From an uncultured Planctomycetales bacterium (GTDB taxonomy: Bacteria; Planctomycetota; PLA2; JAEUHO01), in assembly GCA_964586025.1 (NCBI GenBank), contig CAZPGF010000001.1, positions 29,544-93,543 on the forward strand: a stretch of DNA of 64,000 bases. Direction: 5' to 3'. Shown here one piece after another: positions 6,424-42,152 of the stretch (position 1 is the first letter of the stretch; each line of letters starts with the position of its first letter). The notes beneath the pieces are model-generated. The model was not told the origin of the DNA, did not search any database, and saw only the letters and a list, made by a program, of their open reading frames with translations. The position numbers and the translations under genes were made by a program.

Positions 6424-8285
6424 GCGAAACCCTTCTTCACGGAGTTCACCAGGTCCTTCACGCCCTTGTCGGCGGGGTTGCCGCCGATCTGGAGGCGCAC
6501 CCAGTACGTCGTCTGCTTGTGCTTGAAGACGTAGCCTTCCTCGACGTACGGAACGTCCTTGAAGCGCGCCGTGAACTCGTACTTCAGTCCCTTCTCGCCC
6601 TCGAATGCGCCTTGGCGGTGGTACGGCGGCTTTCCGGACTTCGAGCACTTCGCGGTGTCGCCGAGTCCCGCGAGCCACGCCTTCGCATGGTCGTCGATGA
6701 TCGACTCGGGCTCCTTTCGCTCGTTCTGCAATCGGGCGGCCGCCTCCGCCCAGATCGAGAAGTAGACGTACCCCTGGCCGTCCGGCGTTCGCCCCTCGAT
6801 CGCCATCTGCAATCCCTGCGACTTGGGCTGCGCGAGCGCGAGTTGGGCAAATGCCTTGGATTTCTTGAACGTCCAGCCGTCGGTCTCGGTGTAGCCGCCG
6901 AGGCTGGAGGCCGTACGAGGCGCCCACGAGAACCCGGGCAGCGCGAGCTGGGTCTCCTCGCCGAGTCCGATGCCCCGCGATCCCGTGAACGTGGCGAGCC
7001 CGTCCGTCGGAACCAGCGGCCCGGCGACGAAGTCGGTGGCCTCGATGAACCGCACGCCCTTCATCAGCTCGGCGAGGGGTCGTCCGAACGTCCGCGTGCG
7101 GTCCTTCTCGTATCCCTCGATCGTGAAGATCCAGCGGTAGAGCCAGCCGCGCAACACCGTTTCGATGAAGACGGCCGATGCGGTCCGGCCGTCGGCGCGC
7201 GTGCCCTCGCGTGTGACCATGATCGCCTTGCCGTTCCCGAGGTCGATCGGGCGGATCTGGGACCCGGTGCTGGCGACCTCGGAGAATCCGTAGATCTCCG
7301 GGATCAGGCGGTCGAACTCGGGCGAACGGACGAAGTCGGCCGGATCGTGCTGCCCGGCGAGCTCGAACAGGACGAGATAGCCCTGAAGGACGTTGGACTT
7401 CGGCGCGTCCTCGGGGTCGAACTCACCCTTGGTTCGCTCGACGCTCGCCATGACGTGGACGACCGGGGAGATGGAGGTCCTGTTGCCGTCCCGCTGGAAC
7501 GCGTTCTTGATGTCGCGGATCGGCGACCGCCAGGAGAAGGGCCCGTTCGCAGGAAGGGTCCACTCCAGGTTGTAGCCGGTGAAGGTCAGTTTGTTGCCCT
7601 CGCGGACCGGCCCGTCGGCCGGCCACGGCTCCTGGTCCGACGCACCGTCGTCCCGCTGCTCCGATCGCGGCGCGGAGCCGGCCTCGGTGAACGTCTCGGT
7701 GACGGTCTTCGTGCCGCCGCCCTTGATCAGCTGGAACCCGTCCCGAAGGGCGTTCAACTCGTCCAGGCGCGTCTCGTGCACGTCGTTCTGGATCAACAGG
7801 ATCAGGTGGTAGAAGGTGCCGTCACGCTCGATCGCATACCCGCGAATCTGGATCGACGTGTCGTGTTTGGTCTCGCCCGCGAGGATGACGACCTGACCAT
7901 CGATCCCGGCCAGCACCGTGGGGCGGCGCACGGTCGTTCGGACGCCGGCCGAAGCGAACGCCGCGAGCGAGGAGCGCATCTCCTCGATCCGCTCGTCGAC
8001 CGAGAGCCCGCCGGTCGGGCTCGACGTGCCGATCGCGACGACGTTCTTGTCGTCCGACACGGCGCGTGCGAACGAACCTGCGTCCTTGTCGATGGAAGAC
8101 AGTTCCTGCCACGTGTACTCGAAGTTGGGCAGGGTCCAGCGCACGTTGGCGCCGGGGTAGGAGGCGGTCAGATCGTCGGCGGCGCCGACGACGCCGTGCC
8201 CGGTGGCGAACACCAACGCAAGAACCAAGAGCGGTCGCAAGACGGCGCGGGACGCTCGGGCGGGAGGACGAGGGGAAGGGGACAT
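6411..8285 (-). CDS. secreted hypothetical protein (signal peptide), unknown function
   Basis: ATG at 8285 gives MSPSPRPPARASRAVLRPLLVLALVFATGHGVVGA. 624 aa, no recognised domain. Its 3-prime end overlaps the start of the 5038..6423 gene by 13 nt. Confidence 0.6.
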   Translation of the reverse strand: MSPSPRPPARASRAVLRPLLVLALVFATGHGVVGAADDLTASYPGANVRWTLPNFEYTWQELSSIDKDAGSFARAVSDDKNVVAIGTSSPTGGLSVDERIEEMRSSLAAFASAGVRTTVRRPTVLAGIDGQVVILAGETKHDTSIQIRGYAIERDGTFYHLILLIQNDVHETRLDELNALRDGFQLIKGGGTKTVTETFTEAGSAPRSEQRDDGASDQEPWPADGPVREGNKLTFTGYNLEWTLPANGPFSWRSPIRDIKNAFQRDGNRTSISPVVHVMASVERTKGEFDPEDAPKSNVLQGYLVLFELAGQHDPADFVRSPEFDRLIPEIYGFSEVASTGSQIRPIDLGNGKAIMVTREGTRADGRTASAVFIETVLRGWLYRWIFTIEGYEKDRTRTFGRPLAELMKGVRFIEATDFVAGPLVPTDGLATFTGSRGIGLGEETQLALPGFSWAPRTASSLGGYTETDGWTFKKSKAFAQLALAQPKSQGLQMAIEGRTPDGQGYVYFSIWAEAAARLQNERKEPESIIDDHAKAWLAGLGDTAKCSKSGKPPYHRQGAFEGEKGLKYEFTARFKDVPYVEEGYVFKHKQTTYWVRLQIGGNPADKGVKDLVNSVKKGFAWAR

Positions 8286-8425: not shown

Positions 8426-11014
8426 TCACTCCCCGGCGTCGTCGGCCGAGCCGTCGGTCCCCTCGTCCGCCGTCTCGTCCCCGCCGTCTTCCGGGCGGAC
8501 CCAGGCCATGCTCACCAGTCGGTCGCCGTCCGGGACGTCGATCGCCCGGACGCCCGCCGTGGAGCGGCTCATCGGCCGGAACTGCTCGCTCGTGACGCGC
8601 ATCCGGATCGACTTGCCGCCCTGGGTGATCAGAATTACCTCGTCGCCGTCGAGGACGGAGCGCGCGGCCACGACCTCGCCGTTGCGAGCAAGGCCGTCGG
8701 GCGACACGTTGCGAAGTCCCTGACCACCGCGTGACTGGGCGCGGTACTCGGCGAACGCGGTGCGCTTCGCGTAGCCGCGTTCGAACACGGTGAGCAGCGA
8801 TCCCGGCAGGGTCGCGACGTCGCCGTCGGCCGACTCGATCCGCACCTCGTCGCGGGCGATCGCCATGTCGACGACATGGTCGTCTTCCTGGAGGCGGATG
8901 CCTCGCACACCGCGGGTCGAGCGACCCATCTCGCGTGCGTCGGAGACCGGGAATCGGATCGACAGGCCGCGCGCGGTGACGAGCACCACCTCGTCCTTCT
9001 CATCGACGAGCGCGACGCCGAGAAGCGCGTCGCCTTCGACGAGCTGGATCGCGATGATGCCGCCGCGATGGATGTGCGCGAACTCCGACAGCGCGGTGCG
9101 CTTGACGAGGCCGTTGCGCGTCGCGAACAGGAGAGCGCGCGCGTCGCCCATCTCGCTGACCGGCAGCACCGCACGAATCCGCTCCTCGGCGCCGAGATCG
9201 AGCAGGTTGACGACGGCACGGCCCTTCGTGTAGCGCCCGAGATCCGGCAGCGCGAACACGCGATCCTTGAACACCCGTCCGGTGTGCGTGAAGTAGAGCA
9301 TCGTGTCGTGCGTGTTCGCGACGAGCAGGTGCTCGACGAAGTCCCCCTCCTTCGACTCGGTGCCCTTGATGCCCTTGCCGCCGCGGCGCTGGCGGCGGTA
9401 CTCGGCCAGTCCGGTTCGCTTGATGTAGCCCTCGTGCGAGAGTGTGATCACCACGTTCTCGGGGGCGATCAGATCGATCGAGGTGAGATCGTCCTTGGAG
9501 TCCTCGATCCGGGTCCGGCGCGAGACCGGGAATCGGGCCTTCAGCGCGAGCATGTCCTCGCGGAGGATCTGCGTGACGCGCTCGTCGCGCGCCAGGATGT
9601 CGCGGTAGTCGGTGATGCGCGCGAGCAGGTCGGCGTGTTCCGCCTCGAGTTCGCGGCGCTGGAGGCCGGTGAGGCGCTGAAGGCGCATTTGCAAGATCGC
9701 GTCGGCCTGCGCGATCGAGAAGCCGAACCGTTCGATCAGCCCGGCCTTCGCGGTCTGCGGGTCGGGGCTGGCGCGCAGCAGCGCGACGATCTCGTCGATC
9801 AGGTCGAGCGCGCGCAGCAGGCCGGAGACGATGTGGTCGCGCTCTTCGGCCTTGCGCAGGAGGTACCGGGTGCGCCGCGTGACGACCTCGCGGCGATGGG
9901 TGACGTAGGCTTCGATCAGGCGCACCAGGCTGCACAGCTCGGGGCGGCCGTCCACCAGCGCGATCATGTTCACGCCGAGCGTCTCGCGCAGCGCGCTGTG
10001 CTTGTAGAGCTGATTGAGGACGAGTTCGGGGTCGACGTCGCGACGGAGTGCAACGACGATGCGGATGTCCTTGCCGGACTCGTCGCGGACGTCCACGATG
10101 CCGTCGACGCGGTCGCCCTTCGCCAGGTCCGCGATCTTGGCGACGAGCGCCGCCTTGTTGACCTGGTAGGGGATCTCCGTGACGACGATCTGCGCGCCGC
10201 GGCGACCGCCTTCGGGTTCGTGGATCTCGCAGACCGCGCGCATCTCCAACGCGGCGCGGCCGGTCGTGTAGGCGTCGAGGATGGCCGCCCGCCCGCAGAT
10301 GCGCGCGCCGGTCGGGAGGTCCGGGCCCGGCAGGTGCTTCATCAGGCCGTGGACGTCGATCGCGGGGTCGTCGAGGTAGGCGAGGATCGCATCGGCCACC
10401 TCGCCGGGGTTGTGGGGGGGGATGGACGACGCCATCGCGACCGCGATGCCCGCGCCGCCGTTGATGAGCAGGTTGGGAAAGCGGCCGGGCAGGACGGTCG
10501 GCTCGAGGCGGGACTCGTCGTAGTTCGGTCGGAAGTCGACGGTTTCCTTGTCGAGGTCGTCCAGCAACTCGACCGCGGCGTGCGTCATGCGGCACTCCGT
10601 GTACCGCATCGACGCAGGCGGATCGCGATCGATCGAACCGAAGTTGCCCTGGCCCTGGACGAGCAGCTCGCTCATGTTGAACGGCTGCGCCATTCGCACG
10701 AGCGTCGGATAGATCGCCTGATCGCCGTGCGGGTGGTAGTTGCCCATCGTCTCGCCGACGACCTTCGCGCACTTGATCGTCTTGCGACTCGGGCCGAGAT
10801 TCAGGTCGTTCATCGCCACGAGGATGCGGCGCTGACTCGGCTTGAGTCCGTCGCGCACGTCGGGGAGCGCGCGATCGACGATCACGCTCATGGCGTAGCG
10901 CAGGTACGACTGCTTCAACTCGCCCGCGATGTCGAGGTCGAGGATCCGTTCGCTCCCACCACCGCCGCCGGAGGGCGACGGGTCCACGGATTCGGCGGAT
11001 TCGGAAGTCGACAT
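8426..11014 (-). CDS. gyrA: DNA gyrase subunit A
   Basis: [13 protein letters not shown] and [18 protein letters not shown] motifs with the beta-pinwheel C-terminal domain. ATG at 11014 (MSTSESAES...). Confidence 0.9.
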
Positions 11015-11267
11015 CGTCCTCTCTCGAAGCCTCCCGGGAGGGGTCCCGAAGTTGCCTCCGGGGCGCCGCGAACCGCCGCGAACGCATGGCATCGCGGCCC
11101 GACGGCGGGTAGCGGGGCATGGTACCCTCCGCGGCTCGCGGACCGACGGGAATTCGGGGGTTTGCGGCCTCGGAGAAGCCATGGTTCAGCGCGTCGCGCG
11201 TCGCGTCGATCGCCCGGTCGATCGCCCCGTCGCGTCCCGTCGGCCAACGCTTCGGCGAGTTCTCGCG

Positions 11268-12398
11268 ATGGCACTCTTCCTCGCGCTCCTCGGTTGCGGC
11301 GAGCCGTCGGGACCGAGCGATGGTTCGAGCGCCGAGTTCGCTTCCCCGTGGAGCGAATCGGACCGTCAACTGAACCTCGCGGGCACCGCGACCGTGATGG
11401 GCGCGACCCACGGCCGCGTCTTCCGAGACCGCATTCGCGCGCTTCGCGACGAGTGGCTGCCGGAACTGATCGACGCGGGCACCGGTGCCGGCGATCGCGA
11501 GGCGTTTCGCCGGTACCTCCGTTCGATCGTCGATCAGGTCGCGTTCCACCTGCCGGAAGCGTTGCGCGAGGAACTCGATGCGATGGCGGACGCGGCTGGA
11601 CTCGAACCGCTCGACCTGCTCGAGTTGGAAGTCGCTCGCGACGCCGTGCGGATGCGCGACGGTGCGCCGCGCATGTCGGGCGCGTTCGCCTTCCATCGCG
11701 CGATCGACCACGACCACGGCGGGCCCCGTCGCGGACTTCGCGTGACCTGGCACGGACCCGACGCCCGGCGCGTCACCGCGAACGGCGTGCGCATCGTGCG
11801 TGTGCCTTCCGACGGTCGCCCCGCGACGATCTGCGACACCTGGCCCGGCATGCTCGGCGGCATCGTGGTGACGCGACTCGCCGGAACGGAGCGCGGGCGG
11901 AGCGGCGGGCGAGCGGATGCCGACCTCGTGATCGGAGCGGCCGAGGTGGAGGTGCCACCGTCGCATCGCGGATTCGGCACCGGTCTGCCGCTGTCGATGT
12001 CGCTGCGGATCGCCGCCGAAGCGTCCGAGTGGAACGGCATGCGGGGACTCGGCGGCAGCATGGGACACGTCGCGTTCGCGTTCGACCCTCGTCCTGGCGC
12101 GGACCCCGTGGCCGTCGTCGGCACGTTGGCGTCGGTCGCTCCCGACGACGTCGTACGGGCGCTTGACGCGACCGGCGTGCCGGTCCTCGTAGCCGGACCG
12201 CATGCGAACCTCGCCGGCCCCGAGCAGACACAACTCGACGAACGCGTCGCCGAGGCGCCCGAGTCGGCCTATCGGGAGTTCGCGCAACTCGCCGACGTGC
12301 CCGACGCGTCGAGTGCGTCCCACGCCTCGCTCGAACGGACGTACGGGGGATCCGGCGAAGGCGACGACTCGTCGGGCCTGGCCCCGACGCGTCGCTGA
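11268..12398 (+). CDS. hypothetical lipoprotein
   Basis: MALFLALLGCGE has a lipobox LLGC. An alternative upstream ATG lies at 11181. Divergent from gyrA. Confidence 0.5.
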   Translation: MALFLALLGCGEPSGPSDGSSAEFASPWSESDRQLNLAGTATVMGATHGRVFRDRIRALRDEWLPELIDAGTGAGDREAFRRYLRSIVDQVAFHLPEALREELDAMADAAGLEPLDLLELEVARDAVRMRDGAPRMSGAFAFHRAIDHDHGGPRRGLRVTWHGPDARRVTANGVRIVRVPSDGRPATICDTWPGMLGGIVVTRLAGTERGRSGGRADADLVIGAAEVEVPPSHRGFGTGLPLSMSLRIAAEASEWNGMRGLGGSMGHVAFAFDPRPGADPVAVVGTLASVAPDDVVRALDATGVPVLVAGPHANLAGPEQTQLDERVAEAPESAYREFAQLADVPDASSASHASLERTYGGSGEGDDSSGLAPTRR

Positions 12399-12400
12399 AC

Positions 12401-14473
12401 TCAGGGACCGACGGGTCCCAGTCGGTCCAGCGCGCGACGCGCCACGATCCGCAATTCCTTGCGGGCGGGTTCGGGACTCGTCCCCCCGGCCAGATCGGCA
12501 AGTCGCCGTCGGGCGAGCGCGCGACGCGCTTCGTCCGGCGCCGCCGCGTCGACGATGGCGCGCGAGAGGCGGAGGATCTCGTCGATCCATTCCATCGTCT
12601 CCGGGTCCCCCCGGAACGGGCCGCGCAGGGCGTCGTGGCGGAGCGATGCGCGCTCGATCGCCCGCTCCGCCGCGACCAGATCGCCTTCCCTGGCGGCGAG
12701 TCGTGCCGAGAGCGTCTCGGCTCGGAAGGCGATCCACAGCGCGCCGGGGGTGGTCGGCGCGGGGTCGATGCGGAGTGCGTCGATGTCCGTGCGCGCTTCC
12801 ACCACGTCGTCGAGATGATCGAGCGAGATCTCGGCAGCGTGCAGCCGGGCGTCCGCCGCACGTTCGGCTCGCGGATCGCGCTCCGCCGCGCCGCGCCACG
12901 CATCGCGCGCGCTGATCCACAGGCGCTCGGCGTGGATGTCGGCCTCCGGACGCTCGAGCGCACGGCGCTCCAGCCGATCGCCCTCCGCGGCGAGGATCGC
13001 TGCGCGCGCCTCGTCGACCTGCTCCGGAAACGCGCGCGCCGCGAACAGGACGCCGCCCGCGGTGAAAAGGGCGATGCCGACCCGCAGTCGGCGGGAGACA
13101 GCGCGCTCGCGACGCCGCACCGAGTCGTCGCCCGCGTACGACGCGAGCATCTGCGCGCGACTCTCCAGGGTCCCGTGGCGATGCGCCGGGCTTTGGCCCC
13201 CGGTCGCGTGATGCAGACGTTCGAACGCGCGCATCAGGTGGATCGCCGGGACCGACACCGCCCCCTCCGCGGCGCCGTCGCCCGCCGGTTCGCGCGGGAC
13301 GCGCTCCCCGAAGTCCACGGTGAAGAAATCGGCCTCGCGCTCGAATCGACGTGAGATCACGCCGAGCAGGACGAACCAGAACAGCGCCAACTGGCCGACG
13401 AGGATGAGGAACGGCGGGATCCCGAGCGCGACGAGCGGTCCGTGGGCGATGCCGATCCACAGCGCGAGCGAGAGGACCAGAACGATGTACAGGGGAATGT
13501 GGCGTCGGACCGCGTGTCCCGCCTCGTGGAGGAAGACCGCGGCGATCTCCTCCTCCGGCATCGACGCGACGAGGCGGTCGGTGAGGAAGATCCGTCGGGT
13601 GCGGCCGAATCCGACGACCATCGCGTTGAGGATGCGGCCCTGGGTGTTCCACAGGTAGATGCCCTGGAGGGGGAGCCGCAACGACGCCGCGATCTCGACG
13701 AGGCGCGTCTGCAGCGAGCCCGGCGGCAACGGGCTCGCACGCATCAGCCGTCCGGCGATTGCGGGCAGGGCCGGGAGCGCGATCGCGAGCAGGAGCACGA
13801 AGACGCCGAGTTGCAGCAACTCGAAGTGTTCGAGCCAGAGGCCCGCCCGGCGTGCCGGCTCGACACCGAGTTCGCCGGCGACGTGGAGCGCCTCGCCGAG
13901 GCCGAGCAGCACGAAGAGGGGCGCGGCGATCAGCGCGTTGCGACGGAGCCCGGCCCGCACCGCCTGACGGGGTCCGGCGACGCGGGGGACGATCCCTCGC
14001 GTGCGGGCGAAGGCAATCTCGACCTCGTTCTCGGCGACCCAGGTGAAGGCGAACATCACGGCGAGCGGCAGCAGCAGCACGACGTAGGGGGCCATCCAGA
14101 CGACCCGTGGAACCACGGTGGCCGCCCACACGCCCCAATCGAACGCGCTCAGGCAGACGAGCCATGCCGCGAGCGTGCCGAGACGAAGCCCCCGGGTCGA
14201 GGCGAGCGCGACGGCGCCCGCGCCGTCCTCGATCGCCTCCACTCCGCGTTGCGCGACGTGTCGCGTCCACGTCGCGACGGTGGCGACGAGCACGAGCGTT
14301 CCCCACGGAGCCAGGGGCGGCGGCGTCGTCGCGGGACTCAACGTGCCGAGCCCGACCAGCAGTGCGATCAGGACGGTCAGGTCGGGAAGCACCGCCGCGA
14401 AGTGTCGCCGCACCCGCGGCCGTCGACGAGCGAAACCCCCCCGGCGGCACGAGCGTTCCGCGCGTGGATGCAC
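12401..14473 (-). CDS. M48-family zinc metallopeptidase (membrane), C-terminal helical/TPR-like extension
   Basis: HEAGH zincin motif in FLHEAGHAVRRH, multiple TM helices, and a long Ala/Arg-rich helical C-terminus. Start (GTG 14473) is uncertain. Confidence 0.7.
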   Translation of the reverse strand: MHPRAERSCRRGGFARRRPRVRRHFAAVLPDLTVLIALLVGLGTLSPATTPPPLAPWGTLVLVATVATWTRHVAQRGVEAIEDGAGAVALASTRGLRLGTLAAWLVCLSAFDWGVWAATVVPRVVWMAPYVVLLLPLAVMFAFTWVAENEVEIAFARTRGIVPRVAGPRQAVRAGLRRNALIAAPLFVLLGLGEALHVAGELGVEPARRAGLWLEHFELLQLGVFVLLLAIALPALPAIAGRLMRASPLPPGSLQTRLVEIAASLRLPLQGIYLWNTQGRILNAMVVGFGRTRRIFLTDRLVASMPEEEIAAVFLHEAGHAVRRHIPLYIVLVLSLALWIGIAHGPLVALGIPPFLILVGQLALFWFVLLGVISRRFEREADFFTVDFGERVPREPAGDGAAEGAVSVPAIHLMRAFERLHHATGGQSPAHRHGTLESRAQMLASYAGDDSVRRRERAVSRRLRVGIALFTAGGVLFAARAFPEQVDEARAAILAAEGDRLERRALERPEADIHAERLWISARDAWRGAAERDPRAERAADARLHAAEISLDHLDDVVEARTDIDALRIDPAPTTPGALWIAFRAETLSARLAAREGDLVAAERAIERASLRHDALRGPFRGDPETMEWIDEILRLSRAIVDAAAPDEARRALARRRLADLAGGTSPEPARKELRIVARRALDRLGPVGP

Positions 14474-14544
14474 TCGCCGCGGCGGGCGTGTACCTTCGCC
14501 GAACAGGGGGCGCGGCGACGAGTCGAGCGCTCCGGGAGGGCACG

Positions 14545-15624
14545 ATGGACCACCCGACGGATGGGCCGGTGGCTGGGCGTCGATCGTCGACGCGCGCGAC
14601 GATCATGGCGACCGCGCTGTGCGGGTGGCTCGGGTGCGTGACCGCCGGTGCCGACGAGCCGAAGGGCGCGACGTTTCGCGAACCGCAACTCGGACTCTCC
14701 GCGACGGGCCCGAGCGGTTGGCGCGTCGCGACCCAGGGAACGGCGCCCACCGAGTGGACGCGCCTGGCGACGTGGTTCGAGACGGGGAATCCTGCGGAAG
14801 CGGTCCTGAGCGCGCGTCGTCGTTCGGCCATCGACGTGCAGGCGCTGCAGACGCGTGTTCGCGACGAGTGGTCCGCGTCGAAGGAGATCACCGTCGTCGG
14901 CACGCGCTCCGTCGAACCGACCCCGACCGCGCCGATCGGCCAGGTGATCGTCGATGCCACCTACGTCGTCCGCCCGAAGCCCGCCGCGGGCGCCGATCCG
15001 ACCGTGCCACCGCCGCCGGTGCCGTGGAGGATCCGGGCGACCTACTGGCTCGCGCCGCGTGGCGAGGTGCTGCTCTACGCGAAGGCCCCGCAGGCGCAGT
15101 GGGCGCGCTTCGAACCGCTCCTCAAGCAACTCGAGACGAGCGTCGCGTTCGTCGGAGCGGAGTCGGCGGCCGAGCCGGCCGGCTCCGGAACCTTCCGCGA
15201 CGAGAAGAACGGCTTCGCCTGCCGCTACCCCGACGGGTACTCGGTCGCGCTGCCGGCCCAGCGCAACCACATCGTGCAGTTCGCCGCGATCGACGCGGAC
15301 GCGCCGTCGTTCGACGTCTACGTGGTGCCGTGGGAGCGTGCGCTCGACGATGACGTCGCGCGGACCCAGTCGTTCTACGAGAACGAACAGGCGGCCGAGA
15401 CGAGCACGCACCCGTTGACGCTGCTCGGACAGGAGGCGACCCGCCTCGAGGCGCGGGCGCGGATCGGCGGCCGCGACCTGCTGCTGCTGACCGTCTTCGC
15501 GAAAGTCGGGTCGAACCGGGTCTTTCGAATCAAGGCCACGGCCCCGGTCGGTCGAGAGGGAGAACTGCGCCGCGCCCTGGATGCGTTCCTCGGCGGGTTC
15601 ACCCTGATCCCGACCGCGCGCTGA
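14545..15624 (+). CDS. secreted hypothetical protein, possible tandem PsbP/DUF1795-like modules
   Basis: ATG at 14545. Hydrophobic N-terminus (ATIMATALCGWLGCVTAGA) with a possible lipobox. Two similar ~150-aa halves. Confidence 0.5.
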   Translation: MDHPTDGPVAGRRSSTRATIMATALCGWLGCVTAGADEPKGATFREPQLGLSATGPSGWRVATQGTAPTEWTRLATWFETGNPAEAVLSARRRSAIDVQALQTRVRDEWSASKEITVVGTRSVEPTPTAPIGQVIVDATYVVRPKPAAGADPTVPPPPVPWRIRATYWLAPRGEVLLYAKAPQAQWARFEPLLKQLETSVAFVGAESAAEPAGSGTFRDEKNGFACRYPDGYSVALPAQRNHIVQFAAIDADAPSFDVYVVPWERALDDDVARTQSFYENEQAAETSTHPLTLLGQEATRLEARARIGGRDLLLLTVFAKVGSNRVFRIKATAPVGREGELRRALDAFLGGFTLIPTAR

Positions 15625-15783: not shown

Positions 15784-17085
15784 ATGCAGTCCCGCAAGGC
15801 TTCGCGACGGCTCCGCGACGAGCGGGGCATGGTCCTCGTGTGGGTGAGCCTCTGCCTGGTCACGGTCGCCGGGATCATCGTGGCGTCGATGGGACGCCAG
15901 CAGGCTCTCGAGGGCCTCTCGGAGTTCGAGTCCGCCTCGCCGGCCCACGCCCGGGACGTCGCCGAGGCGGGCATCGTGGACACGCTGGCGTGGTTCCGCC
16001 GGCAGACCGATCAGCCGGTCGCCGCGTTCACGCCTCGCCGCGACCTCACGCTCGACCCGCCGATCAACGAGACCGACGACCCGACCCGCGGACTCATCCG
16101 CTCCTACGAGGTCGCTCCGCGACTCTGGGCGCGTTACGAAGTGCTGATCGGCCGCGAGGCGGAGTCGTTCACCGACGAGAACGGCAACGGTCGCTTCGAT
16201 GCGGGCGAGGAGTTCGACGACGCGAACGGCAACGGTCGTCGTGACGAGGCGCTCGGCGTCCGCGACGTCACGGAGCGGCGCGGTGAGACCGGCAACGGGA
16301 TCGTCTGGCGCATCGAGAGCCGCGGCTCCGTGTTCCGCCGCATCGACCCGACGATCCCGCTCGGCGAGGGCGTCAACGCCCGCATCTCCGAGGCACGTCT
16401 CGCGACCGAGATCCGGCGGATGGCGATCAACATGCCGGCGTCGGCGGCGATCTGCGCGGCGCGCGGCGACGGAGTCACCATCGGCGCGCGCACCCGCATC
16501 GCCGGTGGTCCCGGGGCGGGGATCGCGTACGCGTCGGGCACCGGGTCGGCGCTGCTGCTCACGGGCGCCCAGGTGACCGGGAGTCCCGCGCACACCGGGA
16601 TCCCCGGGCTCGACGTCGATGTCGAGTCCGTCTTCGGCACCGATCTCGCGGGGGTGCGCGCCGCGGCCGGCTTCGTGACCGACGACGTCGCGACGCTCCC
16701 GTTGCCGCTCCCGTCGGCCAGCCTCACCGTGTTCGAAGGCAGCCTGACGTTCAACGAGAAGCGTCCGCTGCGCGGAACCGCGATCCTCGTGGTCACCGGC
16801 GACTGCACGATCGAGACGGGCAGCAACAGCTTCTTCAACGGCGTGCTGTGGGTCGGCGGCAACCTGACCGTGCGGGCCCCGACCCTGCTCACGGGAACCA
16901 TCGTCGTCTCGGGCAAGGCCGACCTCCGCGGGCTCGGCGGCGACCACGTGGAGGTGCAGCAGGACGACGAGGTGGTCCACCGCCTGCTGCAGACCTTGGG
17001 CCAGTACCGCTTCGCCAAGGCCATTCACCGCGTCGAGGGGGAAGACGCTCCGCGTCGACTCTCCGGCGAAGGGGGAGGTGCGTGA
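15784..17085 (+). CDS. PilX/GspK-like minor pseudopilin-type protein
   Basis: N-terminus [15 protein letters not shown]|MVLVWVSLCLVTVAGIIVASM resembles PilX/GspK (no Glu at +5). Contains DENGNGRFDAGEEFDDANGNGRRDE Ca-binding-like repeats. GGAGGG sits 6 nt upstream of ATG 15784. Confidence 0.6.
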   Translation: MQSRKASRRLRDERGMVLVWVSLCLVTVAGIIVASMGRQQALEGLSEFESASPAHARDVAEAGIVDTLAWFRRQTDQPVAAFTPRRDLTLDPPINETDDPTRGLIRSYEVAPRLWARYEVLIGREAESFTDENGNGRFDAGEEFDDANGNGRRDEALGVRDVTERRGETGNGIVWRIESRGSVFRRIDPTIPLGEGVNARISEARLATEIRRMAINMPASAAICAARGDGVTIGARTRIAGGPGAGIAYASGTGSALLLTGAQVTGSPAHTGIPGLDVDVESVFGTDLAGVRAAAGFVTDDVATLPLPLPSASLTVFEGSLTFNEKRPLRGTAILVVTGDCTIETGSNSFFNGVLWVGGNLTVRAPTLLTGTIVVSGKADLRGLGGDHVEVQQDDEVVHRLLQTLGQYRFAKAIHRVEGEDAPRRLSGEGGGA

Positions 17086-20000
17086 TGTACCGCCGCGCGT
17101 CGGGCTTCAGTTTCATCGAGATCCTCATCGCTGCGGGTCTCGTCGCGATCGCGTCGATGGCGGCCGCAGCGCACGTGACCCGCAGCGCGCAGCGTTCCGA
17201 CTGGGCGCAGGACCGCATCTTCGCGCGTCAGAAGGCCCTCTCGATCCTCGCCGAACTCCGCGCGTACGTGGAGGGCGGCGACGGCGAGGTCGCGGCGGAC
17301 CTCGACGGCTTCGACGACGGCGTGGCATGGCGCCCGAACCTGACGATCCAGCCCGATCCGAACGATCCGGGCGCATTCCTGCATCCGGGGCATCCGACGT
17401 CGGCGAACGTCGAGAACGAGGGCGTCTGGGCGTGGCAGCGCCAAATCTCCGTCCGGCGTTTCCCGAGCGTCAACACCCGCGACCTCCGGATTTGCACGGT
17501 GCGCGTGTTCCGCCGCCGCGTCGGAGACGTCGATCCCGGTGAACTGATGGCCGAGGTATCCGGCGTCATCCGCACCCTGGGCGACGCGTTCCCGAGCACC
17601 CAGGTCTACGACGTCTACCTCCTCGCGCTCGACAACGTGCCCGGCTGGTGGGTGTTCATGGACGCGATCCAGCCGTTCGTCGAGGCGACCCTCTCGGATC
17701 TCGAGTCCCGCAATCCCGGCCTGCGATTCCGCACGCACTGGATCACCAAGGCGGGCTTCGGTCGAAACGAGGAGTACGCGCCGTACACGAACGAGACGCG
17801 CATCAGCACCGACAACACGCCGTGGGCGTACGTGTATCCGGGGCGGATGCCGGCCGACTCCGCCGCCCAGCGCTACTACGTCGCGCACCGATTCGGTGGT
17901 CGCGTGAACCTCGACGGGGAGATCACGCCGAGCTTCTACAACGACCTCGCGCCGATGGAGCCCTACACCGACACGAACGGCAACGGTCAGCGCGACGCGG
18001 GCGAACCGTGGGACGATCTGGACGCCGACAACACCTGGGACCGCGGCAACCCCGTGCCCTACGCGCTCGCGGACATGCACAACCACTGCATGCGCAGCCC
18101 CGATGAGGTCGCGCGCTTCGAGCAGCGCGTCGCGGTGGGCCAGGAAGACGCCGAGGTGCCGACGTGGCGCATCCTCCTGGATCGGATGATCGCGATGCCG
18201 GATCGCTACCACAACGCGATCCTGATCAACCTCCACGGCGAGCTCCTTCCGATGCCGGCGGTCCGCAACTACAGCGACGCTGCGAAGATCCCCGACCTCC
18301 GTCCCGGTTGGCGCGCCGTGACGCACCCCGAGCGCCTTCGCTCGGTGCGGGTCGCCGGCGCTCCGGCCTCGTCGCAGGAGATCGCTTGGCGCGTGTACGC
18401 CTACAAGACGTCGTGGTCCGGCACGGCCGGCGCCGAGGCCCTCACGTCGCAGGAGGAACCCTTCGTCGACGCCAACCTGAACGGCATCTACGACGACGGC
18501 GAGGCGTACGACGACTGGAACGGGAATGGGTTCCGCGACGAGGGCATCCCGATCCACATTATGATCCCCGGCGGCCGCTTCGATCAGTCCGTCAACATCG
18601 GTTCGACGCCCTCGCTGACGATCCAGTGCATCTCGGGTGGCATCGACGCCAACGGCGACGGAACGGTCGAGGACTACGCGAACTGGGCCAACGCCGCGCG
18701 ATACCCCGACGCCTTCACGGATGTCAACGGAGACACCCGGCGTCAGCGCGCCGAGGCGTACCTCGACCTGAACGGGAACGGGACGCGCGACGTCGATGAG
18801 CCGTTCAGTGACCTGGACGGGGACGGGGTCTACACGGCCGTCGACGAGCCGCTGACCGCGGACTACGACGGCGACGGGATCCTCGACCGGGCCGGTCCGG
18901 AGGAGACGTACACGGACGTCAACGCCAACGGCCGCTGGGACGCCGCCGAGCCCTACCTCGACGTGAACGGCGACGGGACTCGCAACGGACCGGCCGCCTC
19001 ACCGGCGCCGCTGTGGCGGCCGTGGGACCCGCTGACCGACGACGCGACCAACGCGTCGGTCCTCGCCGACTACGTCTACAACTACGGCGAGCCGTTCCTC
19101 GATCTCGACGGCGACTCGGTGTGGGATCCTGCCGAGCCGCTCGTGGACGGCAACGCCAACGGCGTCCACGACGGAGGCTTCCGCCGCGGTGAGATGTGGT
19201 ACCTCGTACGCTACGACGACGAGGGCACGTCGCTCCTCCTCCACGGAACGCCGCTCGAGACGCCGCGCACGTCGTCCGGGCGCGGCCTGTCGTCGACCCG
19301 ACGTCTGTACGAACTCGACTACATCCCGTGCCCGACGCCGACGAGCACGTCCGCCGGCGGCGATCGCTTCGCCAGGAACCTCTACTCGACGAGCAGCCGC
19401 CCGAAGAACACCGCGCGTTGGCGCATCGCGATGTCGCCGACGGCGATCCGCGACGGGTTCGCGTCCGGCGACGCGATCGACCGCGTCGTGCGTCTCGAGA
19501 CGCGTTTCGGGCGCGACCGGACGACCGGCACGATGTGGCCGACGCGCTGGCAGCCGGCGAACAAGAGCGCGTCGTTCACGTGGTACACCGACTCCGTCGA
19601 GGACGTCCCGTTCAGCGAGCGATACCAGTTCATGGGGGATCCGCGGCACATGCCGTACATGGACCTCGACCGACACGGGGAGACGAGCCCGAACGGCTAC
19701 AACTGGTTCTTCGACGACTTCACGACGGGGGCCGGCAACGTCTACGACGACTGGCCGGCCTTCGACGGAGCCCGTCTCCGGAACTCGTGGCGCGGCAACC
19801 GCGGCAGTTCGCTCGACGTGCCGCGTCTGATGTCGTGGTTGCGGTACGCGCTCGTCCGCAACGAGGCGATCTACACGACGCTGACGGGCTTCTCGTACTA
19901 CTACCTGTCCGTCGGCGGGGACATCGGGTACGACGTCGACAACGGGTTCGCGAACAGCATCCCGATGGACGGCGCCCCGTTCGGTCTCACCGGCGACGTG

Positions 20001-21203
20001 TTCGAGAACACAATCACCGACGGCAACGGGACGAGTTCGATCCGCGGCAGCCTGAAGTTCGTCCGGAGCAACGACGGCACCGCGACGAGTTATCGCGACG
20101 CGGGCGGCTACTGGTGGAGCAAGCCGTGGATCGGCGAACTCTTCCCCGACAGCGCCTACGTCGACCAGTGGGCGGAGTGGGGCAACCTGCGCGCCGAGGC
20201 CTCGACGAACGCCGGAACGTTCCGCCAGATCCGTCGCGGGGAGATCACCACCTCGCAGCAGCCGAACGGCACGCAGCTCATCAACACCTACGCGCGGCTC
20301 GCCGAGGAAGGCAGCACGTCGCTGTTCAACATCGGTTCGTCGTCGTCGACGTTCCATCACCAGTACGCCGACGGGCGCACGGGTGGCCTGGTCGAGGACG
20401 GCCCGCAGCTTGCGGCGAACTACAACTTCCCGCTGCCGAACCGCGCCGCGATCAGCCGCCCGTTCGCTCTCAACGTGAACTACGACGGCTCGGTCGGCGA
20501 CGAGTTCTCGTTTACCACGGAGTTCCCGCGCTTCAGCGCGTCGGTCGTCCGCCGCTTCTTCGATCACGAGTTGGGCACGATCGGCAGCGCCCTCGTGCGC
20601 CTGCGCGCGCCCGGGACCAACCCGCGCGGCGGCTATGTCGTGGTGAACGGCCTGGACCGCACGATCGAGAGCGGCTCGGCGTTCATCGCCCGGTACAGCA
20701 TGCTGTCGCTGATCCACAGCTACTTCGCGGGCGGCGTCAGCGATCCGAACCGGATCCGCCAGCTGCCGCGCGTGCAGATCCGGACGCCGACCTTGCTGAC
20801 GGAGATCGACTCGCCGTCCACGATCCCGGTGTCGTGGTCGATCCAGTGGAGGCGATGGGACGGCTTGAAGTACACGACGAACTACCCCGACGACTTCGCG
20901 GAGAACGAGGCGGACCTGATCTACGTGCTCTCCTACAGCAAGGACGGCGGCGCGACGTGGCTCAACATGATGGACGAATCGCCGGCGACGCTCGGCGAAC
21001 TGCCCTGGGACGACGACGCCGGGACGCCGGACGCCTCCCGCACGCTCGTCGACTCGGCGCCGGCGGCCGACGAGACTTACCTCTGGGACACCCCCGCCGC
21101 GAAGCTGCCGAAGGGGTCGTATCGGATCCGCGTCGAGGCGTATCGCCGCACCGAGCCGCTGCACTACGCACAGCACATGGAGAAGATCTATGTCAATCGC
21201 TAG
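17085..21203 (+). CDS. giant (1372 aa) prepilin-type N-terminal cleavage/methylation-domain protein with Ca2+-binding Asp-rich repeats
   Basis: MYRRASG|FSFIEILIAAGLVAIASMAAA is a class III signal (Gly-1, Phe+1, Glu+5). ATG overlaps the upstream stop (TGATG). Long extracellular region with many D-x-N-x-N/D-G-x-x-D repeats. Confidence 0.7.
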   Translation: MYRRASGFSFIEILIAAGLVAIASMAAAAHVTRSAQRSDWAQDRIFARQKALSILAELRAYVEGGDGEVAADLDGFDDGVAWRPNLTIQPDPNDPGAFLHPGHPTSANVENEGVWAWQRQISVRRFPSVNTRDLRICTVRVFRRRVGDVDPGELMAEVSGVIRTLGDAFPSTQVYDVYLLALDNVPGWWVFMDAIQPFVEATLSDLESRNPGLRFRTHWITKAGFGRNEEYAPYTNETRISTDNTPWAYVYPGRMPADSAAQRYYVAHRFGGRVNLDGEITPSFYNDLAPMEPYTDTNGNGQRDAGEPWDDLDADNTWDRGNPVPYALADMHNHCMRSPDEVARFEQRVAVGQEDAEVPTWRILLDRMIAMPDRYHNAILINLHGELLPMPAVRNYSDAAKIPDLRPGWRAVTHPERLRSVRVAGAPASSQEIAWRVYAYKTSWSGTAGAEALTSQEEPFVDANLNGIYDDGEAYDDWNGNGFRDEGIPIHIMIPGGRFDQSVNIGSTPSLTIQCISGGIDANGDGTVEDYANWANAARYPDAFTDVNGDTRRQRAEAYLDLNGNGTRDVDEPFSDLDGDGVYTAVDEPLTADYDGDGILDRAGPEETYTDVNANGRWDAAEPYLDVNGDGTRNGPAASPAPLWRPWDPLTDDATNASVLADYVYNYGEPFLDLDGDSVWDPAEPLVDGNANGVHDGGFRRGEMWYLVRYDDEGTSLLLHGTPLETPRTSSGRGLSSTRRLYELDYIPCPTPTSTSAGGDRFARNLYSTSSRPKNTARWRIAMSPTAIRDGFASGDAIDRVVRLETRFGRDRTTGTMWPTRWQPANKSASFTWYTDSVEDVPFSERYQFMGDPRHMPYMDLDRHGETSPNGYNWFFDDFTTGAGNVYDDWPAFDGARLRNSWRGNRGSSLDVPRLMSWLRYALVRNEAIYTTLTGFSYYYLSVGGDIGYDVDNGFANSIPMDGAPFGLTGDVFENTITDGNGTSSIRGSLKFVRSNDGTATSYRDAGGYWWSKPWIGELFPDSAYVDQWAEWGNLRAEASTNAGTFRQIRRGEITTSQQPNGTQLINTYARLAEEGSTSLFNIGSSSSTFHHQYADGRTGGLVEDGPQLAANYNFPLPNRAAISRPFALNVNYDGSVGDEFSFTTEFPRFSASVVRRFFDHELGTIGSALVRLRAPGTNPRGGYVVVNGLDRTIESGSAFIARYSMLSLIHSYFAGGVSDPNRIRQLPRVQIRTPTLLTEIDSPSTIPVSWSIQWRRWDGLKYTTNYPDDFAENEADLIYVLSYSKDGGATWLNMMDESPATLGELPWDDDAGTPDASRTLVDSAPAADETYLWDTPAAKLPKGSYRIRVEAYRRTEPLHYAQHMEKIYVNR
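17965..19180 (+). repeat. protein-level array of thrombospondin-type-3 / EF-hand-like Ca2+-binding repeats inside the giant pilin-like gene
   Basis: Repeated motifs DTNGNGQRDAGEPWDDLDADN, DANLNGIYDDGEAYDDWNGNGFRDEG, DVNGDTRRQRAEAYLDLNGNGTRDVDEPFSDLDGDGVYT, DYDGDGILD, DVNANGRWDAAEPYLDVNGDGTRNG and DLDGDSVWDPAEPLVDGNANGVHD. Confidence 0.5.
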
Positions 21204-22200
21204 CTGCTCGTCGCCCACGCGCGGGGCCCAACGCGGCTTCACGTTCCTCGAGACGACGCTCGTGCTCGCGATGACCACGCTGCTTGCGTGGGTCGTCGAG
21301 AGGACGTTCACCTCGACGACCGACGCCGATCGTCATCTGGCGGGGGTGCAGAAGTCGACGGATCGTTGTCAGGGCCTGTCGTACCGGATCCGCGAACTGG
21401 TCAGCGCGAGCCGCCGGCTGTTCGGGCGGGACACGATCGGCGAGGGATATCGCGATGCGCTGCAGGTGGACCGCGTCGTGCCGGTCTCGAACCTGCGTCT
21501 GCCGGTGATCGATCCCGTCGGGCGACTCGTCCCCGACGAGACGGGCGTACCGACGACGGGCAACTGCCTCCTGTTCGTGGGGGAGACGGATCCGGCCGAA
21601 GTCGTCGTGGATGCGACAACCGGCGCGACCCGGTTCATCGACATGTACCGGTTCGTCTACGTGGTCCCCGTCGTCACCGGTCGGTTCGTCACGACCCGGC
21701 AGCCGCGGACGGCGGCCCGGGACCTGGTGATCTGGCGCAGCACCGCCTACCCCAGCCACACGCAGATCCTGGGCCTGTCGAGCGCCGCCCACCGGGAGGC
21801 GGCGGTGAGCGCCCTCGTGACCTCCTACGGCTGCAGGTTCGCGTGGGATCCGAGCGGCGCCGTGGACGACAGCTTCTTCGCGATGGACGAGTTCGGTGCG
21901 CTCGCGACGTCCCCCGAGGCCGACATCGAGATCGAAGAGGATCCGGACGTCAGCAGCGTCGGTTCCATCGTCGCCTCCGGCCTGCAGCTCGCGCCGAGCG
22001 ACACCACGCGCGAGTCGTACGACCGACGGGCCTGGATGACATCCGATCTCGGCTGGTGGCCTAACGGCTTCGAAACGAAGATCGTCGGCGGCAGCGGGTC
22101 CCGAAAGATCTGGATGCGGCTGACGCTGGAGGCGCCGAGCGGCGGGCCGTCGACCGTCGTCCACGCATCCCAGGTGATCGCCTCCGCCCACGATCTCTAG
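21190..22200 (+). CDS. pseudopilin-like protein (prepilin-type N-terminal domain)
   Basis: MSIASCSSPTRGAQRG|FTFLETTLVLAMTTLLAW is a class III signal with Glu+5. Overlaps the upstream stop by 14 nt. Confidence 0.65.
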   Translation: MSIASCSSPTRGAQRGFTFLETTLVLAMTTLLAWVVERTFTSTTDADRHLAGVQKSTDRCQGLSYRIRELVSASRRLFGRDTIGEGYRDALQVDRVVPVSNLRLPVIDPVGRLVPDETGVPTTGNCLLFVGETDPAEVVVDATTGATRFIDMYRFVYVVPVVTGRFVTTRQPRTAARDLVIWRSTAYPSHTQILGLSSAAHREAAVSALVTSYGCRFAWDPSGAVDDSFFAMDEFGALATSPEADIEIEEDPDVSSVGSIVASGLQLAPSDTTRESYDRRAWMTSDLGWWPNGFETKIVGGSGSRKIWMRLTLEAPSGGPSTVVHASQVIASAHDL

Positions 22201-22463: not shown

Positions 22464-23255
22464 ATGTCCCTCCCCCTCCCCTCGCAGCCGACTCGAACCG
22501 CCCCCACCCTTCGCCCCCTCCCGCAGTGGGATCGCGTGTTCGATGCGATCGAGCGTGTGCTCCACGCTCAGGGCGTCCACCAGCCCCAGGCGTTGCGCTC
22601 GCCGCGCCTCATCGACGAGGCCCTCGATCCCCGGCTCCTCCCGCACGGTACGATGCTCGTCCTCTCCGAGGCCGAGCGGGTCGCGACCGAAGCGGACATC
22701 GAGGAGACGGTCCGAGACGAACGTGCCGGCGGTTGCGTCCTCGTGACGCTGCCCGCGGTCGAGAAACTCGGCGACCGTGCGAAGGCCTTGCGTGATCTCG
22801 CCGGCGCCGCGGCGACCTTCGGGTTCCACGCCGAATCGCGGCCTCTTCCCGCTCAGCGTCTCGGCCGCGTCCGGCAGGTTCCCTGCCCGGCCGGCCTGTC
22901 GGGTTACCGCTTCCTGCTCGCGGACACCCCGGGCTACCGCGTGGCGTTCGTGCAGCGAAACCTGCCCGGCGGCGGTTGGATCGGTCTTTGGAGCGGGAAT
23001 CCCGCCCTGGTGGGTGAACTGCGGCGCGTGCTCGCCGCGGCGGTCCAGGCGGCCGGCCTGCTGATGCCCGGCGCATCGCCCCGCGTCCCCGAGATCGACG
23101 GCATCGCGGCCGAGGACGAGATCTGGAAGCGGGCGTCGGAACTGCGCGCCTATCGAACCGTCCGCGAGGCCGAACTGCGGGAGATCGCCCGGCAGGCCGC
23201 CTTGCGCGGCGTCCAGCTCCGTCGCGAACGCGACGAGGCGGCACGCTCCGCGTAG
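22464..23255 (+). CDS. hypothetical protein
   Basis: 263-aa ORF with protein-like composition; no family recognised. Confidence 0.45.
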   Translation: MSLPLPSQPTRTAPTLRPLPQWDRVFDAIERVLHAQGVHQPQALRSPRLIDEALDPRLLPHGTMLVLSEAERVATEADIEETVRDERAGGCVLVTLPAVEKLGDRAKALRDLAGAAATFGFHAESRPLPAQRLGRVRQVPCPAGLSGYRFLLADTPGYRVAFVQRNLPGGGWIGLWSGNPALVGELRRVLAAAVQAAGLLMPGASPRVPEIDGIAAEDEIWKRASELRAYRTVREAELREIARQAALRGVQLRRERDEAARSA

Positions 23256-41820: not shown

Positions 41821-42152
41821 ACGAGTCCGAACTGCCGGTCGTCCTCGTCGCCGGCCGCTTCGTCGACGAGATCGCCGCGAGCGAGGTCGCGGCCGCGCTG
41901 AACGCCTGGTTTGCGTGGATCCTCGGCGGATCCGCCGACGTTCCGCCGACCGCGTTCGAGGCGTTCGGCGTCGCGACGTCGAACTATGCGTGGCGCCTCG
42001 ACGAAGACGTCGACTGGGAGATGGGGCCGCACGCGCGCGCCGTCGATGCGGAGGTGCGCATCGAACTGGAGACCCACGAGACGCACCTCGCTCTCGCGGG
42101 CCTCCTGCGCCGACTCGGCGCGCGGACGACACGGATCATGCGATCCGAATGA
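41817..42152 (+). CDS. hypothetical protein
   Basis: GTG overlaps the comF stop (GTGA). 111 aa, protein-like. Confidence 0.35.
   Translation: MNESELPVVLVAGRFVDEIAASEVAAALNAWFAWILGGSADVPPTAFEAFGVATSNYAWRLDEDVDWEMGPHARAVDAEVRIELETHETHLALAGLLRRLGARTTRIMRSE

Follow-up and report, generated by a model that had tools for sequence, protein, structure and literature searches.

Minor-pilin tip complexes determine the adhesion target of a filament and whether assembly happens. A class III signal consists of a short charged leader ending in Gly, and a hydrophobic stretch of about 20 residues that has Glu at position +5, the residue required for subunit docking; capping pilins typically lack this Glu. 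Minor-pilin operons located apart from the machinery are common, and the known large tip protein, PilY1, is to our knowledge absent from many phyla. The T2SS pseudopilus tip is formed by GspK, GspI and GspJ (PDB entry 3CI0; XcpVWX, 5VTM/5BW0), of which GspI has about 125 residues. PMC7541494 provides a precedent for minor pilins acting with a large partner, the T4aP priming complex FimU-PilV-PilW-PilX plus PilY1 (Pseudomonas; Myxococcus). In ComZ of Thermus thermophilus (PDB entry 6QVI, PMC6561018) and in cyanobacterial PilX, a pilin fold without Glu5 is interrupted before its last strand by a beta-solenoid similar to ice-binding proteins, and the PilX solenoid has been proposed as a tip plug (bioRxiv 10.64898/2026.02.12.705559). 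Modular type IV pilins such as S. sanguinis PilB-vWA and PilC-lectin and CofB/TcpB (PMC8179133, PMC9934059) carry a functional module grafted onto the pilin and shown at the tip, and lectin or carbohydrate-binding modules recur among them.

The locus described here belongs to an uncultured Planctomycetales bacterium (GCA_964586025.1). The window, the whole stretch of 64,000 nt that was analysed, covers positions 29,544-93,543 of the forward strand of contig CAZPGF010000001.1. It encodes three genes, A, B and C, whose products we consider probable core minor pilins of a type IV filament (pilus or pseudopilus), forming its tip or priming complex with B as a bulky adhesin or plug. As in the T4aP priming complex (PMC7541494), core minor pilins would be combined with one very large tip protein containing calcium motifs.

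Three overlapping genes with prepilin-like N-termini

Genes A, B and C are consecutive on the + strand. Their coding status is confirmed by codon-position GC (GC3 0.89-0.92, GC2 0.50-0.53), and the overlaps of start and stop codons reported by the first-pass annotation are one base between A and B (TGATG) and 14 nt between B and C. GGAGG-like sites are found 7-8 nt 5' of A and of B. The three genes are translationally coupled, which is counted in favour of a common tip complex. Their features are as follows, in window positions; a slash follows the conserved glycine.

15784-17085, + strand: gene A, predicted capping-type minor pilin (GspK/PilX/ComZ-like), 433 aa, Gly-1, without Glu+5
15826-15891, + strand: A, Gly15 and hydrophobic N-terminal helix segment (G/MVLVWVSLCLVTVAGIIVASM), Trp at +5 (sequence; conserved in the A family)
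16174-16254, + strand: A, pair of DxNGNGxxD putative calcium-loop motifs, residues 131-157 (motif scan, shuffles)
16444-16959, + strand: A, predicted beta-solenoid module, approximately residues 221-392, preceding the final strand of the pilin sheet (predicted structure)
17085-21203, + strand: gene B, putative giant modular minor pilin, 1372 aa
17085-17624, + strand: B, class III signal and GspI/PilV-type pilin module, residues 1-180 (sequence, predicted structure)
17625-18467, + strand: B, conserved N-core of the body, residues 181-461, with invariant NLHGE...RNxSD...R..THPE and a small calcium-loop pair at 296-322 (conservation profile)
18468-19184, + strand: B, variable insertion site, residues 462-700, with 10 of the 12 DxDxDG loops (motif scan, conservation profile)
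19185-20756, + strand: B, conserved C-core, residues 701-1224, with invariant KNTARW and E..Q..GDPRH.PY.D (pLDDT > 90)
20757-21200, + strand: B, C-terminal domain, residues 1225-1372, with Asp-box-like SYSKDGGATW (family-wide conservation; outside the structure model)
21190-22200, + strand: gene C, prepilin-type protein, 336 aa, with a 16-residue leader, G/FTFLE and Glu+5; globular part about 300 aa

The three N-termini, with Glu+5 in B and C and none in A, agree with the earlier reading. A starts with ...RDERG/MVLVW, where the Gly is kept and Trp replaces Glu at +5. B starts with MYRRASG/FSFIE (Glu+5 at 17118-17120) and C with ...GAQRG/FTFLE. Judged by sequence, B and C carry the class III signal of a type IV pilin or pseudopilin, and a motif scan of the whole 64-kb window finds such motifs in these two proteins only. 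Their homologues retain the G...E motif at nearly all of the 24 scanned loci, down to about 32% identity. Against the N_methyl models (Pfam PF07963, TIGR02532), B scores 17.5 and C 12.1, both below the threshold of 21.2; homologues above it are P0014 (23.3), P0095 (23.7), P0247 (23.5), P0252 (26.6) and P0383 (34.7). Among C-family members, 13 of 14 match N_methyl at E <= 1. The products of A, B and C would be cleaved by a prepilin peptidase.

Predicted folds and modules of A, B and C

Structure prediction, which had been proposed as a check, gives a capping pilin with an inserted beta-solenoid for A and an N-terminal module of the GspI/PilV type for B (pLDDT 91-92 for both models). Both models show the pilin fold, in which a long N-terminal helix packs against an antiparallel beta-sheet. 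Predicted A resembles Thermus ComZ, cyanobacterial PilX and GspK/XcpX. By its model, A fits the GspK/PilX/ComZ capping type, with a pilin fold, a large domain inserted in the sheet and no Glu5. The inserted domain is a beta-solenoid in A and an alpha-domain in GspK. ComZ and cyanobacterial PilX share with A the position of the solenoid and the missing Glu5, but they show no detectable sequence similarity to it; in addition, A has the calcium-loop pair, which is missing from more distant A homologues. The sequence models NF037980 (GspK) and PF14341 (PilX_N) do not match A at E <= 1, and its hhalign comparison with E. coli GspK yields a probability of 2.6%.

The predicted N-module of B resembles GspI/XcpV/EpsI and has the GspI fold in a high-confidence model. 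Comparison with E. coli GspI by hhalign gives a probability of 90% over 91 columns. B of the window reaches 17.4 bits against TIGR02523 PilV (cut-off 52.2) and 13.8 bits against TIGR01707 GspI (cut-off 44.35). For 35 diverse representatives of the B family, the PilV model matches 24 (best E 4.7e-9), a likeness to the T4aP priming complex, and the GspI model matches 18; all of A, B and C fall below the cut-offs of the curated GspI/J/K models. B is not a small single-domain subunit. Its 1372 aa compare with about 100-190 aa for a single-domain GspI/PilV subunit, in line with the roughly tenfold size noted before, and lengths in the family run from about 1030 to 1660 aa. Relative to GspI, some 1200 residues are added in this position. 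While ComZ and cyanobacterial PilX carry their module on the cap, the very large module here is located on its neighbour B. As a PilY1/PilC tip adhesin B was rejected: it does not show a C-terminal PilY1/PilC beta-propeller combined with the absence of a pilin N-terminus.

For the body of B (about 1200 residues), structure comparison finds no solved analogue beyond Ig-like sandwiches. A description of it is absent from Pfam, NCBIfam and the PDB and was not found in the literature. The earlier remark that the cassette is not recognised as a described system is supported for this body, but modular pilins as a concept are already known (PMC8179133). Compared with these pilins, the B body lies far above the 860-residue extreme of PMC8179133, has no InterPro/Pfam signature, contains an internal insertion site of its own and sits on a GspI/PilV-type subunit. 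The Asp-box-like C-terminal region gives a weak BNR match in the homologue P0014.

The first-pass annotation described B as filled with Asp-rich repeats and A as carrying similar ones. B contains 12 D-x-[DN]-x-[DNS]-[GTN] loops, compared with 0.77 +/- 0.88 in 2000 shuffles (maximum 5), and A contains 2 compared with 0.08 expected. The loop unit has 15 residues, E-P-[FYW]-x-D-x-N-G-N-G-x-x-D-x-G-E. The repeats are real in both proteins, but in B they take up only about 20% of the sequence, at residues 296-322 and 462-700, so that "filled" does not stand. The loop-bearing part is the least conserved of B, is prone to insertions and deletions, and is missing in about one third of the homologues; the region of residues 462-700 is deleted in short-type homologues. 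The same insertion site is occupied by PA14 in P0401 and by CBM_6 in P0352. In B the Asp-rich repeats make up an accessory insert that can be replaced; they are not its core. The DxDxDG loops of both A and B would bind calcium.

B is unusually conserved for an adhesin, with 50-75% identity and near-constant length. Polar residues that are invariant at about 30% identity include NLHGE 382-386, R394, D398, R410, H414 and E416, and also E845, Q848, GDPRH 851-855 and D860. With these His, Asp, Glu and Arg motifs, B could be more than a passive plug, namely an enzyme or a fixed receptor. B might be mainly such a protein of a new fold, only presented by the filament or a membrane anchor, with the motifs as its active or binding site. 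The invariance of the polar residues across representatives and the strong conservation of length and sequence speak for it; CBM-type inserts often accompany glycan-active enzymes, and PMC8179133 reports modular pilins that bear peptidase modules. We nevertheless judge this to be quite improbable as the main role of B.

C is prepilin-like. Its hhalign match to E. coli GspJ is limited to the N-terminal 30 residues (probability 80%), and a PDB profile search with C returns matches to N-terminal helices only. C is found downstream of B in every locus examined and is presumed to take the GspJ/PilW position.

Family, synteny and filament machinery

The B family comprises at least 804 clusters at 50% identity, and a single search returned more than 600 homologues at E <= 0.001. 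Existing annotation names its members only "prepilin-type ... protein" or "hypothetical", without domain signature or structure. The Verru_Chthon cassette proteins A-D (NCBIfam TIGR02596-TIGR02600) are another uncharacterised prepilin-type cassette, found in the PVC superphylum and likewise including one very large protein. A, B and C have no match at E <= 1 to the cassette models; their homologues show marginal N-terminal matches to Verru_Chthon proteins C (18.8 bits, cut-off 256.5) and B, and none to D. Judged by these models, A-B-C does not belong to the Verru_Chthon cassette.

Synteny in related genomes, another check proposed at the outset, was compared in 24 loci, 21 from a genome scan and three contigs from exact look-ups. 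The A-B-C order is kept in 19-24 of the 24, and also in all seven distant loci examined; as a unit, A-B-C is conserved in each of the 21 genome-scan loci. Pfam on 30 neighbouring ORFs and tblastn with PilB/C/D/GspH identify no ATPase, platform, secretin, peptidase or further pilin in the 64 kb, which extends the earlier observation of no pilus machinery within 15 kb. Likewise, the 10 kb on either side of the unit contain no machinery, major pilin or GspH-type adapter in any of the 21 genome-scan loci or the three contigs. In this lineage the unit is embedded in conserved housekeeping synteny. The arrangement differs from that of GspK-GspI-GspJ in the gene order, K-I-J instead of I-J-K, and in having no T2SS genes nearby, while the minor-pilin operon of the T4aP priming complex in Pseudomonas/Myxococcus is likewise apart from its machinery.

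Machinery adjoins the unit in one of the seven distant loci (L027), in the order PilD, histidine kinase, A, B, C, GspH-type pilin, T2SSF (PilC-type platform) and T2SSE/MshEN (PilB-type ATPase). Its Peptidase_A24 gene is located 1.8 kb upstream of the A-B-C unit, and its three genes were verified as homologues of A, B and C. This neighbourhood supports the original reading as a minor-pilin cassette, as does every other part of that reading which was put to a test, and "orphan" describes the gene arrangement of the present lineage only. Among the other distant loci, L028 has a GspH-type pilin after C, L032 a further pilin together with a two-component system of the PilSR type, and L033 a second minor-pilin set adjoining the unit.

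It could be argued that A-B-C form the tip of a short periplasmic pseudopilus of a T2SS-like system, with the B body as piston head or substrate-contact surface and not exposed on the cell surface. The nearest structures of A and B include GspK/XcpX and GspI/XcpV/EpsI, the gene after C in L027 and L028 encodes a GspH-family pilin, and the L027 ATPase is a T2SSE with MshEN, which does not distinguish T2SS from T4P. We regard this as unlikely. Alternatively, the class III signals would serve only peptidase-dependent export and membrane anchoring, and A-B-C would be an envelope complex that never enters a filament. Such signals exist outside filaments, for example in the archaeal bindosome (PMC3047682), and both the missing machinery beside the unit and its housekeeping synteny in this lineage speak for it. 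However, A and B have full tip-subunit pilin folds beyond a mere signal, the docking residue Glu+5 is conserved in B and C at nearly all scanned loci, and PilD, GspH, PilC and PilB are adjacent in L027, which makes an envelope complex extremely improbable.

Proposed tip complex and its significance

In the favoured assignment as core minor pilins, the prepilin peptidase would be encoded at another place in the genome and would cut behind the conserved glycine. At the inner membrane, the N-terminal helices of A, B and C would then assemble into a bundle resembling the GspK-GspI-GspJ complex. This helical-bundle heterotrimer would start filament assembly and remain at the tip. A, with its beta-solenoid and without Glu+5, would be the cap. 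B would occupy the GspI/PilV position, and its body, some 1200 residues long, would serve at the tip as both adhesin and bulky plug, filling the role of the separate proteobacterial protein PilY1. Its central insertion site holds binding modules that differ between lineages. In the present one they would be calcium-stabilised DxDxDG loops, about 12 in number; in relatives, carbohydrate-binding modules (PA14 or CBM6) take their place, which makes a polysaccharide or a surface the probable ligand. Several points weigh against a tip complex of this kind. At about 230 kDa it would need passage through a secretin, machinery is missing near the unit in this lineage and adjoins it in only one of the seven distant loci, and B is more conserved than an adhesin would usually be. 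In addition, B and C stay under the cut-offs of the curated models (N_methyl, PilV/GspI), and A matches neither GspK nor PilX_N by sequence.

As a tentative and rather doubtful extension, the conserved B body of about 1000 residues, with its invariant His, Asp, Glu and Arg motifs, may be a new-fold glycan receptor or enzyme at the filament tip that replaces PilY1 in Planctomycetota and other phyla, possibly capturing dextran-like polysaccharides. Pili-like fibres of Planctomycetota bind dextran, as described in a paper that did not identify the fibre proteins (PMC5394234), and A-B-C are a concrete candidate for a component of these fibres. The cassette would represent an alternative to PilY1 in which the GspI/PilV-position subunit itself is enlarged to a body of 150 kDa whose binding insert can be exchanged, and B would extend the size range of modular pilins well past the 860-residue extreme (PMC8179133). 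A, B and C belong to a large family without prior study; in uncultured Planctomycetota they probably make up the adhesive tip of a type IV filament.

Gene models and surroundings of the A-B-C unit

Three consecutive genes on the + strand, here called A, B and C and together the unit, show a strong coding signal in the codon-position GC test.

Genes of the unit (coordinates, strand, product)
15784-17085, +, A, 433 aa
17085-21203, +, B, 1372 aa
21190-22200, +, C, 336 aa

A and B have one common base at their junction (TGATG), C starts within the last 14 nt of B, and GGAGG-like sites are found upstream of A and of B. Artefacts are abundant in the raw ORF lists of the window because its GC content is about 70%. 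Long ORFs of up to 1986 aa at 9000-14960 (-), 18999-21311 (-) and 19196-21274 (+), which lie over real genes in other frames or antisense over B, failed the same GC test and were rejected as artefacts of such DNA. The gene at 14527-15624 was also rejected as a member of the unit; the closest relatives carry a xanthine-dehydrogenase operon between it and A.

The N-termini agree with those read by the first-pass annotation (slash, cleavage site): ...RDERG/MVLVW in A, without Glu at +5, MYRRASG/FSFIE in B and ...GAQRG/FTFLE in C. A six-frame motif scan of the 64 kb detected no class III signal, i.e. a prepilin-type N-terminus with Gly at the cleavage site and Glu at +5, beyond those of the unit. 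B and C score slightly under the Pfam N_methyl threshold and their homologues above it.

In Pfam scans, 30 ORFs around the unit gave housekeeping genes, including OTCase, ParA, TruD, GyrA, M48 peptidase, GCS2-CBS, M50 peptidase, AnmK, HisRS, RecJ, SelB, DnaG and RpoD; these ORFs encode neither a secretion ATPase nor a platform protein, a secretin, a prepilin peptidase or an extra pilin. In addition, tblastn with the PilB, PilC, PilD and GspH sequences of a related locus found nothing in the window. The earlier description of the unit as an orphan thus holds for the whole 64 kb, and one rival reading places A-B-C in an envelope complex outside any filament.

Further genes of the region were recorded. 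Downstream of the unit, 22464-23255 (+) encodes a 263-aa protein without Pfam match, retained in closer relatives at 49-72% identity. There it precedes rsmG and mazG, two genes that annotated contigs of relatives also place close behind the unit. These closer relatives have a deoxyhypusine synthase gene, absent from the window, between C and the 263-aa gene. A large Ser/Thr kinase-FGE-sulfatase fusion adjoins the unit in several distant loci (L012, L013, L018, L024, L030, L031); in the window, the Ser/Thr kinase at 52881-54179, 31 kb off, is a plain one, and a VIT-VWA protein (55351-57579) comes after it. Pfam gave no match at E <= 0.001 for four ORFs of 458-688 aa with a strong coding signal: 5038-6414 (-) and 6411-8228 (-), which overlap each other beside gyrA, 38633-40699 (-) and 51392-52804 (+). 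The selenocysteine elongation factor SelB at 49200-51116 (+) implies that selenoproteins are used; the gene at 42136-42876 (-) codes for an N6/N4 DNA methylase.

Family spread and link to filament machinery

One search returned more than 600 B homologues at E <= 0.001, and all those with an organism name among the matches listed belong to uncultured Planctomycetota. When 1.84 billion cluster representatives were searched with a profile, at least 804 clusters matched at E <= 0.001, of which 424 also passed E <= 1e-30; nearly all full-length matches start at the pilin N-terminus. At 50-75% identity the length of B is near-constant (about 1370-1390 aa); a second, shorter type has about 1130-1180 aa. 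B and C are adjacent in 21/21 loci from species-representative genomes, with A upstream in most, and nearly all scanned loci retain the G...E motif in both B and C, to about 32% identity. Three MAGs carry two complete units on separate contigs (L005/L010, L006/L011, L007/L009). The window has one A; its closest relatives (L001, L002, L003, L008, L023) have two to three tandem A paralogues upstream of B.

The family seems to extend outside Planctomycetota, as judged from two loci. In L025 (10001-16091), on a contig of 48% GC from a bin labelled 'Cyanobacteria_JACYMC01', the unit comes right behind ftsZ, where a mur/fts cell-division cluster ends, and in L033 genes nearby encode proteins that have type IX secretion tails. 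For the homologue P0014, a precomputed annotation gives Pfam PF27309.1; our rescan gave N_methyl and a weak BNR match only.

The three-gene unit is kept in all seven distant family members whose context was examined. In particular, locus L027 has the order prepilin peptidase, histidine kinase, A, B, C, GspH-family pilin, T2SSF platform and T2SSE/MshEN ATPase, where homology is given by BLASTP for B (7e-81 and 7e-60) and by hhalign for A (probability 100%) and C (99.3%). A GspH-type pilin follows C in L028. In L032 a PilSR-like kinase and a sigma-54 regulator lie upstream and an additional pilin downstream, and next to the unit in L033 there is another set of minor pilins, one of them a PilX_N protein. 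These contexts tie the unit to type IV filaments and suggest core minor pilins that make up a K-I-J(-H) set, named after GspK, GspI, GspJ and GspH. A rival reading within filament systems is the tip of a T2SS-type pseudopilus. Direct hhalign comparison with E. coli gave no match of the A family to GspK and an N-terminal match only of the C family to GspJ, with no other known-pilin match in C.

Scaffold, insertion site and polar motifs of B

Sequence profile searches of A, B and C against Pfam, NCBIfam and PDB recovered the N-terminal pilin helix only. A Foldseek search of the PDB with a structure model of B, covering residues 1-1200 of 1372, returned zero matches at E <= 0.001.

B contains 12 D-x-[DN]-x-[DNS]-[GTN] loops against 0.77 +/- 0.88 expected (2000 shuffles, maximum 5), and A contains two against 0.08 expected from shuffles. 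The loops repeat as a 15-residue unit, E-P-[FYW]-x-D-x-N-G-N-G-x-x-D-x-G-E. The loops of A and B would bind calcium as judged from their motif, and we keep the term at motif level because the sole database echo of the Asp-rich segment, in phmmer against the PDB, was non-significant matches to EF-hand loops (E 0.3-0.7).

Conservation within B is lowest at residues 281-320 and 441-700, which are absent from about a third of the homologues. In the alignment, homologues of the short type have nothing at the Asp-rich insertion site, whereas P0401 has a PA14 domain there (34.5 bits; cut-off 24), P0352 a CBM_6 (30.6 bits; cut-off 28.9) and P0286 a weak discoidin-like stretch. The loop pair of A is likewise missing from distant A homologues. 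B is therefore a conserved scaffold with interchangeable modules, often carbohydrate-binding, the module here being a run of DxDxDG loops.

Outside this site, the polar motifs NLHGE, RNxSD, THPE, KNTARW and E..Q..GDPRH.PY.D (residues 382-416, 774-779, 845-860) are unchanged across family representatives at ~30% identity, suggesting that a site of binding or catalysis has been conserved. Among the invariant residues are H384, E386, R394, D398, R410, H414, E416, E845, D852, R854, H855 and D860. Conservation of B is also far above that usual for adhesins. With these invariant residues, B may hold a fixed receptor or catalytic site, and both observations speak for the less likely rival reading of B as an enzyme, or a receptor, presented by the filament.

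A candidate tip complex of type IV filaments

In the best-supported reading, A-B-C would form a complex that tips or primes a type IV filament. Here A would be the cap, B the subunit at the GspI/PilV position, with the huge body as plug and adhesin, and C the third subunit. By analogy, the body of B would take the role of the separate PilY1 of proteobacteria. We infer processing by a peptidase encoded elsewhere, a heterotrimer, surface exposure, calcium binding and a ligand.

Identity of B with PilY1 was rejected, since propeller and PilC domain are both absent. Model searches with the window proteins and their homologues likewise placed A-B-C outside the Verru_Chthon cassette, for which our literature search found no paper. 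Solenoid-bearing capping pilins are already known. Modular pilins have also been described as a class, for which the published survey (PMC8179133) gives more than 1200 proteins and an extreme of 860 residues. Our search of the literature on giant or large minor pilins and on planctomycete pilins did not find a description of the A-B-C family. What is new is that the module-carrying subunit is of the GspI/PilV type, that its very large body has neither signature nor solved analogue and contains an internal swap site, and that the whole of this large family is uncharacterised. Cultured Planctomycetes have dextran-binding, pili-like fibres (PMC5394234), and a putative link of A-B-C to these fibres is tempting.
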